From Escherichia coli (GTDB lineage Bacteria > Pseudomonadota > Gammaproteobacteria > Enterobacterales > Enterobacteriaceae), in the NCBI RefSeq assembly GCF_030013205.1, contig NZ_CP122648.1: DNA of 64,000 nt; one strand, 5' to 3'. Positions within the stretch are counted from its first letter, which is position 1; every line of letters starts with the position of its first letter. Positions 49,701 to 61,700 of this stretch are shown here, in pieces. A program made the position numbers.

Positions 49701-52700
49701 CATACATCACGCTGGTAGCTACCGCTTTAACGCGGGTATCCATCGCCGCGTCGTTTAGCGCCATGCCGCCCCAGCCACAAATACCGAGCAGCCCGATACG
49801 GTTGCGATCTACCTCTTTTTGCAGCCCTAAGAAATCCACCGCCGCGCTGAAATCTTCAGTGTTGATATCCGGTGAGGCGACGTTTCGCGGATAGCCGCCG
49901 CTTTCCCCGGTGTAAGAAGGATCGAACGCCAGGGTAACAAACCCTCGTTCCGCCAGCGTCTGCGCATACAAGCCGCTGGATTGCTCTTTCACCGCGCCAA
50001 ATGGCCCACTGACCGCAATCGCCGCCAGCTTGCGATCGCCACGGTCTTTAGGCAGGTAAAGATCGCCCACTAAGGTGATGCCATATCGGTTCGGGAACGA
50101 GACTTTACGGTGATCGACTTTCTGGCTCTCGGCGAACGTTTTATCCCATTTATCTGTCATGGACACAGGGGCATTAGGATTGGTTGAATCAGCATAACTC
50201 ATTGTCGTGACTCCACTTAATGATGCGAAAAGCAGCATGGTCGGCATCGCGGTTTTTAGCGTGCGGGTGAAGGCTTTCATAAAAATCCCCATAAAAAACA
50301 ACAGAGAGATACAGGTTTCCGACGGACAACGCTGCGGTGCTTTACTTTGATGGGGTCATTATAGTGAGCAGAATTAGTGCTGATTAGGGGGCGATTAATG
50401 CTAAGATTAATACCATATTGTTATAAATTAATGCGGAGATTGCCGGCATGAAGGGGGGATGTTTCAATGGCGAAAAGGGAGAACTACAACGAGCTGTACC
50501 TGTTTATGCAGGTGGTGCGGGAAGGCAGCTTTACCGCAGCGGCTCAGCGGCTGGGTCTTGCTCAGTCAGGAGTCAGCCGTTCTGTTCGCGAGCTTGAAGA
50601 AAGGCTGGGCGTCCAGCTGCTAGTGCGCACCACGCGTAAACTGTCGCTGACACAAGCAGGCGAGCAGCTCTACCAGAAGACGGCATCTGGATTTGAAATG
50701 TTAGATCTTGGGCTTGCCACGCTGGCGCACTATCGAGAGACGCCCTCCGGCACGGTGCGTATCAATGCCAGCCAGCACGCGATTGATAAATGCCTGCTGC
50801 CAAAGCTGGCGGTATTTAAACAGAGATATCCTGATATCCGGCTTGAACTGATAAATGAGAGCCGGTTCGTCGATATCATCGAGGAAAGATTCGATGCAGG
50901 TGTCCGCCTGGGGCCTGAAGTCGGCCAGGGTATGGTCGCGGTACGCATCACGCCCGATATGGAGATGGCAATTGTGGGGACTCCGGAACATTTTCGTCGC
51001 TATGGTTTTCCGCAAACCCCGGCGGATTTAAAGGCGCATCCCTGTATCGCCTATCAGTTTGCCGACGGCAGCGTATACCAGTGGGAACTCAATCAGGATG
51101 ATAAAAAAATCACTCATCGCCCTGAAGGGCAATGGGCCCTATCCGACAGCTATATGGAAGCAGAAGCCGCCCGGCTGGGCCTCGGATTGGCCTATGTTCC
51201 TGTTGAACTGGTCGCGGATGATTTAGAACACGGTAAGCTTATCAGGGTGTTGCAGCGTTACAGCCTGCGAATGGAGGGATTGTTTCTCTATTACCCTCAT
51301 CGCAACGTCTCCCCCGCCCTGCGGATGGTCATTGATACATTGAAAATCTGAACGTTAACAACGACCGACTCTTTACTGTGCAATATTGTGTCAGGTAGTC
51401 CCTCTGCGTTCAATTCCAGGGTCTGCTTTGAGCGAGAAAGAGAGGACTATCCAGCAATGGAGATCACCCAAAAGAAAAAACCACCTGGCTCCCTCGACAA
51501 CCTTCATCCGGGCATTGAGCCTCAATCAACATTTTTATATCTGTCAGGTTACTTCATTATGAAAACTGATCATCATCGTTGTTTTTGTTGCAATAGTAGA
51601 ATACGCGTATTTATTCCTCCATCTCTATTAATAACGGCAATAAACTGTTCACTTCACTGATATTTAAAATATGTATCCTTTTCAAGCTGTTCAGCGGCGT
51701 AAGAAAAAGTATTGATTATGAATTCGACGATTTAACCATTTCTGGCTGATTGGTAATCATCTGTGATTAATGCTGGTCTATTGATTACGCCAGCACCCTC
51801 TCTAGCTTATTCACCGCCGCCACATACTTCGCCGGATTTTTATCTTTCAGCACCGCCAGATTACGTTGCTTCCAGCGAATAGCCGGAAGATGCTGAATTT
51901 CAGGATAGCGATACCGCGACCAGTCAGGGCTGTTTTGCTTAAAACTGAGCAAGAACTCGCGATCCAGATCCGTAAGATGTGACTTCAACGCCTGCGGCAG
52001 CAAAGTCGTTACTGACAGCAGCGATTCCAGCGACGTTTCCTGCTGAGTCATCCCCGAAAATTCCTGAGCATACAGCGTCGTGATCCGCTCTATATCCCAG
52101 TTTGGGGCCAGCAACTCGGCAATGGGGCGGGGATGGCCTGCCAGATAACAAAGAAAACCGTCAAAGATCTCCCGCATCAGTCCCGGTTTCTCCAGCATAT
52201 TCAGCACATCAAACAGATCGCGCGGGTGCTGACGATCAAGCGCTGCGCAGATTTTACCGCCATAAAGATCCGCCAGCGAGACGACACTCATGGTGGTGAA
52301 GCCATACTCCATTTCCACACGTTCGCACACAGGCATTTCTGCCGGAGGCAACAACAGCCCGCGCCAGACCGGGCTAACCTCGATCTTAATCTTTGCATCA
52401 GCGGTATTCACAATGATGCGCTTTTCATCCGCTTTATTTTCCTGCCGAATCGCGGTGATCCCCGGTCTGCCGTTCAGCGATGCAGTAATCCTCTTCAAAG
52501 CGTCGTTGATAGCCGCCAGATCAGTATCGCGATCCGCAAAGCTCTTATACGCCAGATCAATATCCACCGACAGACGGGGAAAATCCTGCACAAACAAATT
52601 GATTGCCGTGCCGCCTTTCAACGCGAAACAGGACTCCTTCGCCACATGCGGCAGAGCAGCCATCAACAGCTTAACCTGCCGGGCATAACTATCACGCAGA

Positions 52701-58700: not shown

Positions 58701-61700
58701 ATGGCGAAGGTAAAACTCGAGGCAATTTGTCTATCCTGAAAAAATCAATGGCTACAAATCAGGCCTGTTGCAATGTTGAGATTGATTCTGATAAAGCTGA
58801 TTATGAATATGTTTATTATTTTTTAAAGACACAATATGATGAGCTTCGCCAGCTATCTTCCGGTGTTAGAAAAAACCTTAATTCTAACGATATAAAAAAC
58901 TACCCTATTCGTTTGCCATCCTCTCTGGACGAACAACGAAAAATTGCCTGTGTATTAAAAGTATTAGATGACAAACTTGCTCTCAACAACCGCATCAACG
59001 CCGAACTGGAAGCGATGGCGAAAACGCTGTATGACTACTGGTTTGTACAGTTTGATTTCCCTGATGCCGACGGAAAACCGTATAAAACCTCCGGCGGTAA
59101 GATGGAGTATAACGCCACGCTGAAACGGGAAATTCCGGCGGGGTGGAATGACTCCATTCTTGGTAAGTTTATTGAGTTAGATCGTGGCGTTACTTATAGC
59201 AAAGAGGATGTTCGAACTCAGGATGATAAAGATACGATAGGCATTCTTCGCGCTACAAATGTGACGGGAAATAATGTTGATATTGATGATTTAGTCTTCA
59301 TTCCTTCTAGTAGAGTAAACGTTAATCAAATGCTAAATAAATTTGACATATTGATCGTGATGTCAAGTGGTAGTAAGGAGCATGTAGGGAAGAATGGCGT
59401 GTATTATTTCGAAAAAAAACATGCATTTGGCGCATTTTGTTCAAAAATTACACCCGTCAGAAAATACAGATATTTTATAAATACATTCCTGCAATCGAAA
59501 TGGTTTAAGTCTTATATAAACAATCAGTGCTTGGGAACTAATATTAATAACCTGACCAATACGCATATCACTAATTGTGAAATCATATGCCCCACTCCTG
59601 ATGTTGTGGCGTTATTCGAGAATAAAATGATGCCAATTTATAATAAACTGGCATCAAACACTCAAGAGAATAGTCATTTAATCCAACTCCGCGACTGGCT
59701 CCTCCCTCTACTTATGAACGGACAGGTCACGGTCAAATAATCCCCGGCGTGGTTTTGCGAGGCGCATTCCAGATCCGCATTGCGCCGCACTCACCGCAGC
59801 AAAACCGCTTGCCGTTCATAACCGATCGCAGTATCTTTCTCCCGCGCCTGCAAAATCAGGCGTCGGGATTAGCCTCCTGAAAACCGTTACAGGCGACACT
59901 TGACGCACCAGCGTCTTTTTTGTGTCGTGCGTTCGGCTACACCTCAATGGCGGGCCGGGCGGGGGCGTCGCAAGACGCGCCGGTTTCCTGTAACGCCGGT
60001 AAGGCTAACCCCGTCCGGTTCCGCCCCCATGAGATTAGCCTCTCTAGTGGCGGACATAATAAACCGTTACAGGAGACGCCCTATGGCTACAATCCTCATC
60101 TCTGACTGCGATTTACTCGATCTATTGTCCGCTCCCTTCAATGCCACCACGGATTTCACCGTCCTGGCCGACTACTGCGCCCGCTTCGCCGAAACCCTGA
60201 TAGAAACCGACGATCCGGCGCTGCGGCTGGCGCTCTGCGGACGGCTTCACGCGGCTCTTGCGCTATTGCAACCCACGCTGCACGACCCCATCCCGCCGCA
60301 TCTGATTGAAAGCCTGACCGTTGATACCCTTCCCGCCACACCAGAGCACTTTATTTCCGAACCAGATTCCTTGTGCGAATACTGCCTCGCGCTGCTCCAG
60401 CTACTGCTGGAACGTCCAGCAGAGCCAAAAACGGAACAAACCCTGACCGGGCTTCTGTGTGAGCTGGTCTGGAATTTCACGGAAGGACTCAAATCCCCGC
60501 GCTGGCTGCGTACCGCCGACGGCGTAAAATTTATCAGTGAGGTGGCCGCATGATGCAACAGGACTGACATTCCGCCAACATTATTGCGGTGCTGAAAAAG
60601 CGGGGAACGCCTCTGGCGGCACAGAGAAAAACTCATTGCGGAAGCGCTGTAAATATCGCCAGAAATCATCTGGTCCTCAAGGTACTTTGATAGCAAAGGC
60701 AAGCAGGCTGGTTCAGTCCAGTGTTTCTCTTCTTGCATTTTCAGAAATGGGAGGCTGGGAGTCTATCGAAATGGTTCGTCGATATGCTCACCTTGCACCT
60801 AATCACCTTACCGAACACGCACGGCAAATAGACTCAGTCCTGAACCCATCGGTCCCAAATTTGTCCCAGTCAAAAAATAAGGAAGGTACTAATGATGTGT
60901 AACTTATTGATTTAAATGGTGCCGATAATAGGAGTCGAACCTACGACCTTCGCATTACGAATGCGCTGCTCTACCAACTGAGCTATATCGGCCCTGAAAG
61001 GACATGTTCACGAACGTGAATCACGGTGGACAAGGTTAAAACTAACCGGGCGATGCGTCAATGGCCTTGTGAATCAAATGGCTACTTTTGCATCACCCGG
61101 TTTTATTTACGCACGAATGGTGTAATCACCAATGCCGATCCACTTGTAAGTGGTCAGTGCTTCCAGCCCCATTGGGCCACGCGCGTGGAGTTTTTGTGTG
61201 CTTACCGCCACTTCCGCACCCAGACCAAACTGGCCGCCGTCGGTAAAACGCGTAGAGGCGTTAACGTAAACAGCGGACGAATCCACTTCGTTAACAAAAC
61301 GCTGGGCGTTGCGCATATCGCGAGTCAGGATCGCATCGGAGTGTTGCGTGCCGTGTTCACGAATATGGGCGATGGCATCGTCAAGATCGCTGACGATTTT
61401 GACGTTCAAATCTAATGACAGAAACTCATCGTCATACTCTTCCGCTTTAACAGCCACCACCTTCGCGGGGCCTGTCTGCAACTGCGCCAGTGCACCTGCA
61501 TCAGCGTGTAACGTCACGCCACTTTCCGCCATTTGTTTGCTTAATGCGGGCAGGAAACTATCGGCGATGTTTTTATTCACCAGCAACGTTTCAACCGTAT
61601 TACATGTGCTCGGTCGCTGAGTTTTCGCGTTGACGATCACTTTTAATGCTTCAGCGATCTCCGCGCTTTCATCAACGTAAATATGGCATACGCCTATACC

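Follow-up and report, generated by a model that had tools for sequence, protein, structure and literature searches.

What occupies the stretch between a LysR gene and the tRNA gene thrW in this Escherichia coli chromosome, and does it hold a new immunity gene next to its recognizable anti-phage systems? The window considered here, i.e., the whole stretch of DNA that was analyzed, comprises 64,000 nucleotides of contig NZ_CP122648.1 (RefSeq assembly GCF_030013205.1). A reading of this DNA made without database searches, referred to here as the sequence-only reading, had described the block as a defense island that contains an AbiE-like pair, a type I restriction-modification (R-M) system, a triad of repeats, an orphan open reading frame (ORF) and an integrase reduced to a stub, and it had sought the novelty, if any, in the orphan ORF and its control region. 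We consider the segment to be an immobilized remnant of a tRNA-integrating genomic island, in which a backbone with a C4-type RNA switch is combined with two ordinary anti-phage systems, and we assign this reading a probability of roughly 0.78. The block has three layers, namely, a defense cargo, a regulatory backbone and the scars at its ends.

The gene annotation used is that of the Prokaryotic Genome Annotation Pipeline (PGAP) for the 100%-identical genome ETEC4070, converted to window coordinates. All the parts that had been listed between the LysR gene and thrW were recovered in their places with PGAP, profile hidden Markov models (HMMs) and ARAGORN. The ORF and the stub are both present, but they count 156 residues and 67 codons, respectively, rather than the 157 and approximately 70 given before. 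The proposed novelty, in contrast, did not survive: the control region is a module of isrK and C4 recognized by Rfam, and the ORF is the first gene of an island backbone. What had seemed novel belongs to a known class of antisense-RNA switches and would control a backbone gene. The anatomy has to be corrected accordingly: a gene call named “ash” lies over the C4 RNA gene, the repeats are the target sites of this RNA, and the stub stems from a different phage.

An Accessory Island Next to thrW

The block is bordered by two genes:

50467–51351, LysR gene (PGAP of ETEC4070)
60917–60992, minus strand, thrW, tRNA-Thr(CGT) (ARAGORN, Rfam)

It is an accessory, tRNA-linked island with defense cargo rather than core sequence: it adjoins the 3′ terminus of thrW and differs from strain to strain. 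Positions 51300–61300 are 100% identical to several porcine enterotoxigenic E. coli chromosomes, and the block was found at a coverage of at least 80% in 539 of 5,426 complete E. coli genomes, a count that excludes a block conserved as core across the species. The same site is occupied in K-12 by CP4-6 (262898–297205), as stated in the sequence-only reading, and in strain 7/2 the hsdRMS genes are replaced by DRT1 (see below). The GC content drops to 36–45% in parts of the block vs. 55–59% in the flanks.

The block is GI-thrW of the sequence type 131 (ST131) strain EC958, an already described island. Both are located at the same site and have the same gene order, which in EC958 reads thrW, stub, ORF, “ash”, hsdS-M-R, AbiEi, AbiEii and then an integrase pseudogene. 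Their DNA identity is approximately 96.6% over 51784–58487, and the 156-residue protein is identical in EC958 (WP_000201175.1). Unlike the window, ST131 has kept a tyrosine-recombinase pseudogene and a second stub with a partial thrW copy at the distal end, whereas a pao-LysR segment is present in the window and absent from ST131. Regarded as a defense island, the block is unremarkable: it has been published before, with its restriction system characterized.

The block can also be compared with the “integrase-only” defense islands of the E. coli pan-genome (Hochhauser et al., 2023; PMC10121019), which are likewise tRNA-linked and defense-carrying and are devoid of known transfer genes. The window's copy, however, lacks even its integrase. 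How “integrase-only” islands are mobilized was left unexplained in that study (Hochhauser et al., 2023). The backbone described below, consisting of the ORF, C4 and a Ner-like gene, is found at the integrase end of many such islands across Enterobacterales and offers a possible handle on how they switch on.

An Antisense RNA Upstream of a Small Gene

The triad of repeats is real. The 64 kb contain exactly three matches to the motif TTAGCCT-N(5-35)-CGTTACAGG, i.e., at 59869 and 60035 on the plus strand and at 59987 on the minus strand, where 0.00 are expected from shuffles. These repeats are the target sites and the loop of a C4/IsrK module, which is built as follows:

59809–59837, plus strand, putative isrK promoter, read by eye (TTGCCG at 59809–59814, 17 nt, TATCTT at 59832–59837)
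59844–59921, plus strand, IsrK/seqA-like RNA (Rfam RF01394, 68 bits; gathering threshold 50)
59869–59875 and 59885–59896, plus strand, target sites a1 and b1 in the IsrK RNA
59943–60031, plus strand, C4/CI-type antisense RNA (Rfam RF01695, 71.8 bits; gathering threshold 45; model positions 1–87 of 87)
59947–60105, plus strand, “ash family protein” ORF of 52 residues (PGAP), overlying the C4 gene
60035–60041 and 60065–60076, plus strand, target sites a2 and b2
60083–60553, plus strand, 156-residue protein WP_000201175.1 (hypothetical protein in PGAP)

The IsrK RNA ends with an intrinsic terminator, consisting of a hairpin (59902–59915) and a T run. The Rfam model for the first target pair, c4-a1b1 (RF03163), scores 43.8 bits at 59831–59883, just under its gathering threshold of 46.7. 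The C4 RNA folds with a minimum free energy of −50.3 kcal/mol (z = −3.97) and exposes two segments, b′ in a hairpin loop (59984–59995, UUUCCUGUAACG) and the single-stranded a′ (60002–60008, AGGCUAA). The b′ segment is complementary over 12 nt to b2 (CGUUACAGGAGA) and is also complementary to b1, whilst a′ pairs over 7 bp with a2 as well as a1. Within b2 lies the Shine-Dalgarno sequence GGAG (60072–60075), seven bases before the ATG of the 156-residue ORF at 60083. Rfam also finds the pair of isrK and C4 in the comparison loci L005, L006 and L012.

The pairing is supported by an alignment of eight elements, comprising two E. coli thrW variants, three E. coli tRNA-Asn islands and the islands of Klebsiella, Salmonella and Dickeya. 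Both hexamers of the isrK promoter are conserved in it. The a′ and b′ segments vary among the eight elements, and both target sets vary in step. Between C4 and a2b2, 93.3% of the cells are paired and two-sided changes are found in 10 of 19 pairs (slid controls, 33–45%); between C4 and a1b1, the corresponding figures are 95.3% and 12 of 19. When the partners are slid by 1–3 columns, the pairing goes down to 24–45%, and at most two pairs covary. The cognate C4/a2b2 duplexes have energies of −29 to −36 kcal/mol and, in the comparison across elements, rank first or share the first place.

The start codon of the annotated “ash” ORF, an ATG, lies within the 5′ stem of C4, and the frame measures 8, 15, 28, 30, 38, 52, 52, and 82 residues in the eight elements. 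Since the length varies so widely, the frame is not maintained as a protein, and the ORF is probably a translation of the C4 RNA gene rather than a conserved protein. For the same reason, a real, translationally coupled upstream ORF comparable to orf45 of Gifsy-1 was rejected. A very short upstream ORF starting from the conserved ATG is conceivable. In several elements, the frame of the 156-residue ORF is open upstream through C4 (in the window, 59972–60553), and some databases consequently hold “ash family” fusions of 193–215 residues with a match to PF10554.

An a′/b′ antisense RNA with duplicate target sites is the architecture of immI of P1 and of CI/seqA/seqC of P4, of which the P1 C4 RNA blocks translation and P4 CI causes termination. 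With P1 immI, the window has in common the promoter, a1b1, C4 with a′/b′, and a2b2 over the ribosome-binding site of the first gene, and the C4 model is matched from end to end. However, icd-ant is located downstream in P1, whereas the window has a 156-residue helical protein and a Ner-like gene, and P1 is a plasmid prophage, whereas the window's element is an integrative island. P4 immunity similarly involves a processed antisense RNA between two complementary target sites of the same transcript, but it acts by premature termination upstream of replication genes, and the window does not contain structural-hijack or primase genes of P4. In Gifsy-1 of Salmonella, IsrK with its own terminator is followed by read-through into a short ORF over a C4-like RNA (STnc1160) and then by a protein gene. 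This orf45-anrP arrangement differs from that in the window, where the “ash” frame is not conserved and the downstream protein lacks an antirepressor domain. The genes controlled in P1 (icd-ant) or P4 (the replication operon) are not matched in the window, where the ORF has no counterpart in Pfam, PHROGs or NCBIfam. Thus, the RNA parts closely resemble P1 immI, P4 immunity and Gifsy-1 IsrK, whereas the protein parts show no resemblance to them. Gifsy-1 IsrK activates translation in trans, and seqA has been called its structural homologue (PMC4825925). The Rfam profiles of C4 and isrK were reported to detect relatives of P4 CI and seqA (bioRxiv 10.1101/2022.07.18.500453).

The Backbone of a Family of Islands

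The 156-residue ORF is a real gene. Its ratio of nonsynonymous to synonymous substitution rates (dN/dS) is 0.10 in comparison with the other thrW variant and 0.26–0.38 in comparison with distant members; it has 608 homologs, all in Enterobacterales, and 178 representative clusters; and its AlphaFold2 model is a helical bundle with a small C-terminal hairpin, obtained with a confidence score (pLDDT) of 91.8. No match that would indicate a function was found in PADLOC, NCBIfam, PHROGs or Pfam. Downstream of the ORF lies the debris of a second gene:

60550–60691, plus strand, pseudogene of a Ner-like HTH_35 regulator, with an early stop, an internal deletion and a 3′ truncation

PGAP annotates a helix-turn-helix fragment here (60608–60703), and the homology to an intact gene of 84 residues in L006 extends to 60691. 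The product of this intact gene is Ner-like (phrog_769 at 7e-30; PF13693). In intact relatives of the island, the ORF overlaps the Ner-like gene by 4 nt, and then follow an EFASI RNA, a 294-residue recombinase of the Integrase_1 family, a P4-type integrase and the tRNA gene. Neither an EFASI RNA nor an Integrase_1 gene is present in the window (Rfam, PGAP). The EFASI RNA (Rfam RF02957, 99–119 bits) was located at 11300–11429 in L012 and at 16018–16146 in L006, in both cases directly upstream of the Integrase_1 gene.

The cargo found across the isrK promoter varies considerably. In the E. coli tRNA-Asn islands, it consists of Rhs/PAAR genes or a whole type VI secretion system (T6SS) cluster, in Klebsiella and Salmonella of AbiE, a pair with a DUF4747 protein and TacAT, and in Dickeya of a type I R-M system with DarT and Macro-domain genes. 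Since the same module stands beside such varied cargo, the ORF is a backbone gene of the island family and not a cargo gene for defense. The ORF, C4/IsrK and the Ner-like gene together constitute a backbone module of tRNA-integrating islands across Enterobacterales, and this backbone, with its Integrase_1 gene, suggests a regulatory ancestry resembling that of phages or satellites.

How would such a module work? The promoter would drive the synthesis of an IsrK/seqA-like leader with a terminator, then the C4 RNA and then the 156-residue ORF. The a′ and b′ segments of C4 would bind a1/b1 of the leader as well as a2/b2, which cover the ribosome-binding site of the ORF, and, judging from homology and covariation, C4 may thus keep the ORF and the following genes off until it is out-competed. 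If C4 controls the Ner-like gene along with the ORF, and perhaps also the recombinases farther downstream, the module is most plausibly the switch for excision or induction of the island.

Could the module instead serve as a working immunity device or sensor? C4 would then silence in trans those invading phages, satellites or islands that have the same a/b specificity, or a seqA/IsrK-like decoy in an invader would titrate C4 and thereby free the ORF to act as an effector or to activate the adjacent defense genes. It is noteworthy in this respect that the module is intact even though the Ner-like gene and the recombinases downstream have been destroyed, that roughly a thousand E. coli genomes still carry it after losing the recombinases, and that the dN/dS of 0.10 for the ORF was obtained between two decayed thrW variants. 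Also the specificities of C4 differ between islands, with both target sets following, as expected of an immunity determinant, and the homologous RNA is an immunity factor in P1 and P4. However, the divergence of the thrW variants may predate their decay, in which case the purifying selection would also date from before it. Moreover, the ORF contains no recognizable effector domain, and no further C4 target pair is present elsewhere in the 64-kb window. We regard a role in immunity as improbable.

A Foreign Integrase Stub and Scarred Ends

At both ends, the block carries traces of other sequences:

60699–60902, plus strand, integrase stub, last 67 codons including the catalytic-tyrosine motif (PGAP; match to phrog_1)
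60899–60968, repeat of the attachment site (att), consisting of the 3′ part of thrW and 18 nt beyond
51563–51795, plus strand, left-end scar in which the 3′ end of ykgR is joined to the ykgO/ykgL 3′ region (self-BLAST)

In tblastn comparisons with phages, the stub showed 86.6% amino-acid identity to the C terminus of Int of the Shigella phages SfI, SfII and SfIV and 74.6% to P22 Int. No significant similarity was found to the P4-type and Integrase_1 recombinases of the island family or to IntF. Hence, the stub was left behind by a lambdoid prophage at thrW, i.e., by a different element. Phages of the SfI/SfII/SfIV/P22 type use thrW as their site. A review places the SHI-O gtr island at thrW/proA. 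The Ner-like homology stops at 60691 and the stub begins at 60699. A deletion from within the thrW prophage into the island could have fused the stub to the truncated Ner-like gene, and the same deletion would have removed the EFASI RNA, the Integrase_1 gene and the P4-type integrase. What is left encodes AbiE, an R-M system with the canonical hsdS start lost, and an intact ORF that would be repressed by C4.

In strain P15-25 (L003, 15632–21632), a P22-like prophage with genes for an injection protein and an acyltransferase is located between a stub with a partial tRNA copy and thrW. Thus, tandem occupancy, or stacking, does occur at thrW.

A second copy of the att repeat marks the far end of both CP4-6 in K-12 and GI-thrW in ST131, whereas a word-7 BLAST with the thrW region revealed no second thrW or att copy in the window. 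A functional integrase is also lacking, as the only recombinase sequence in the window is the phage-type fragment of 67 codons. As judged from its sequence, the island is unable to move by itself. The immobility proposed in the sequence-only reading is therefore upheld by the lack of an intact recombinase and of a second att site. The origin of the stub from an integrase of the island itself, as implied there, is not supported.

The left-end scar confirms the relic resembling ykgR/rpmJ2 that had been noticed before. Positions 51563–51679 show 90.6% identity over 117 nt to 32285–32401, the 3′ end of ykgR (PGAP annotates a YkgR fragment at 51563–51631), and positions 51679–51795 show 77% identity over 117 nt to 33072–33188, the 3′ ends of ykgO and ykgL. 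The scar sits where the ST131 strains Esc10 and EC958 have the integrase pseudogene and a partial thrW copy. The distal integrase of ST131 was considered as an orthologue of IntF and rejected, since it shows approximately 27% identity to K-12 IntF and has only its position and orientation in common with it.

The origin of the stub also bears on the view that a single element's own integrase has decayed in place, which would make the ORF with its repeats an unassigned immunity gene, perhaps a new one, with control elements of its own. The ORF indeed lies inside a defense island, between the R-M system and the tRNA gene, is under purifying selection and is without a match in the family libraries. 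However, the stub is of the Sf/P22 type and unrelated to the integrases of the family, the module of ORF, C4 and Ner-like gene is located at the integrase-proximal end of islands with Rhs or T6SS cargo, and the control region consists of two RNA families already known to Rfam. These data leave little room for such a view, and we consider it very unlikely. A defense hotspot is located between psu and int in P4, and it is scarcely credible that the block represents a decayed satellite of the P4 kind in which such a hotspot has survived. In favor of this origin, the C4/isrK pair is homologous to P4 CI/seqA, the “ash” label in PGAP is a P4-derived name, and a P4-type integrase (Arm-DNA-bind_3, Phage_int_M, Phage_integrase) lies beside the tRNA gene in intact relatives, but psu, delta, sid, epsilon and the alpha primase gene are annotated neither in the window nor in the intact relatives inspected, the relatives carry the Ner-like gene, the EFASI RNA and the Integrase_1-family recombinase instead, and the slot here lies between AbiE and the isrK promoter.

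Several points weigh against our preferred reading of an immobilized island with a C4 switch. A consensus promoter scan did not call the isrK promoter that was read by eye. Fold searches with the ORF product returned generic four-helix bundles or members of its own family, and the protein shows no similarity to Icd, Ant or AnrP; what would connect it to an excision switch is its position, and the repression by C4 is suggested by homology and covariation. The sign and the level of control by C4/IsrK may also be other than proposed, as the published homologues act differently. Furthermore, the deletion proposed to explain the stub is a reconstruction. In ST131 (Esc10; L002, 6100–6350), a second stub starts from nearly the same codon beside the distal partial thrW, and the stub region of the window (60699–60961) is a mosaic, of which the 3′ half resembles the distal ST131 copy and the 5′ half the proximal one. 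Together, these observations make a single simple deletion insufficient as an explanation. Finally, one of the two anti-phage systems, i.e., R-M, may be silent in this strain (see below).

Exchange of Cargo

The comparison with strain 7/2 delimits a cassette in the island:

53475–53701, no strand assigned, conserved arm upstream of AbiEi and left border of the slot (homology to strain 7/2 stops at 53701)
53702–59807, plus strand, cargo cassette hsdRMS (breakpoints vs. the DRT1 variant)

Homology to strain 7/2 extends over 50400–53701 (96.5%) and 59808–61500 (93.9%). Between these arms, strain 7/2 holds a gene for a 1,069-residue reverse transcriptase of the RT_UG5-nitrilase type (DRT1; E = 0) instead of hsdRMS, and this DRT1 cassette is present in 260 genomes. 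The slot is flanked by the AbiE promoter arm and the isrK promoter, and on the right it breaks off one base ahead of the −35 hexamer read for isrK, so that this promoter begins 1 nt inside the border. The interval from AbiE to isrK is an exchange slot for defense cargo, so far found to be occupied by a type I R-M system, by DRT1 or by a DUF4747 pair. An integron-like recombination motif was considered and rejected, as none is visible at the cassette junctions of the window, L005, L012 and L019. Given the lack of a common junction motif, the simplest and most likely route by which the cargo is exchanged is homologous recombination within the two conserved arms.

In the islands of Klebsiella (L012, 7854–9412) and Salmonella (L016, 7860–9418), the slot between AbiE and isrK contains the genes for a DUF4747 protein of 323 residues and a 185-residue protein. 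Neither protein had a match in PADLOC, and the pair is a candidate for an uncharacterized defense system.

The Two Anti-Phage Systems

A scan with the defense HMMs of PADLOC assigned both systems to known families, as had been anticipated:

51785–52705, minus strand, AbiEii, nucleotidyltransferase toxin, 306 residues (PADLOC, 3.9e-116)
52692–53474, minus strand, AbiEi, antitoxin and regulator, 260 residues (PADLOC, 8.5e-79)
53758–56856, plus strand, hsdR (PADLOC REase_I, 1.5e-43)
56850–58487, plus strand, hsdM (PADLOC MTase_I, E = 0, positions 1–541 of 541)
58493–59740, plus strand, hsdS, with two target recognition domains (TRDs) (PADLOC Specificity_I, 1.1e-192)

The AbiE genes are located on the same strand and overlap by 14 nt (52692–52705), the antitoxin gene being upstream. 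The match of AbiEii spans positions 3–289 of the 290 in the PADLOC profile, and its translation shows the nucleotidyltransferase motif LKGGTAINLF...SVDIDL (GG...DxD). The dN/dS of AbiEii is 0.07–0.12 in comparison with its relatives, and from its sequence the pair looks intact in this strain. With HMMs matched from end to end, overlapping genes in one bicistron and the nucleotidyltransferase motif, it conforms to the AbiE systems for type IV toxin-antitoxin and abortive infection, in which AbiEii is a GTP-specific nucleotidyltransferase of the DUF1814 type, although its function in the window is a prediction. The pair shows 88% nucleotide identity to the copy in the pheV island of Klebsiella; thus, it belongs to the conserved island frame, which recurs in the pheV islands of Klebsiella and Salmonella. 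An inverted repeat of 23 nt, whose arms in AbiEi (52865–52887) and in the 5′ flank of thrW (61034–61056) are 8.1 kb apart and 91% complementary, was set aside as a probable coincidence, since the AbiEi arm is also conserved in the pheV island of Klebsiella.

The R-M genes hsdR and hsdM look intact on the basis of their translations. HsdR contains the nuclease motif FIEVKK and the SF2 helicase motifs GSGKT and DEVH; against NCBIfam TIGR00348 it scores 258 bits, slightly below the cutoff of 284.55. HsdM, an N6-adenine methyltransferase by its profile match, contains PSAGSGTLL, an S-adenosylmethionine motif, and SNPPF. The start of hsdS, in contrast, is disturbed. At the junction of hsdM and hsdS (58477–58493), the window reads GTTAAAACC, with four A residues, whereas strain P15-25, whose island is otherwise identical, has GTTAAACC, with three. 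The extra A puts the canonical ATG of hsdS at 58477, which overlaps the hsdM stop codon, out of frame. The gene is left with the TTG start at 58493 annotated by PGAP, five codons in, where no obvious ribosome-binding site is found. Hence, the R-M system may not be expressed in this strain. This +1 frameshift also distinguishes the window from GI-thrW of ST131. A second difference concerns TRD1 of HsdS (58488–58937), which has no match in the ST131 allele; therefore, HsdS of the window should recognize a different half-site. The R-M system of the window belongs to the EcoMIII family. In EC958, the type I R-M system is EcoMIII, and its knockout loses RTACN4GTG methylation, as detected by single-molecule real-time (SMRT) sequencing (Forde et al., 2015; PMC4659465).

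Outside the block, the annotation of the identical ETEC genome shows further features (window positions 19350–23604, 28087–29315, and 34810–35397): fdeC is frameshifted, an IS3-family element lies beside a LysR gene, and ecpA contains an internal stop codon. In addition, an IS009 RNA was recognized by Rfam (187.8 bits) at 41670–41870 on the minus strand, between ykgJ and yagU.

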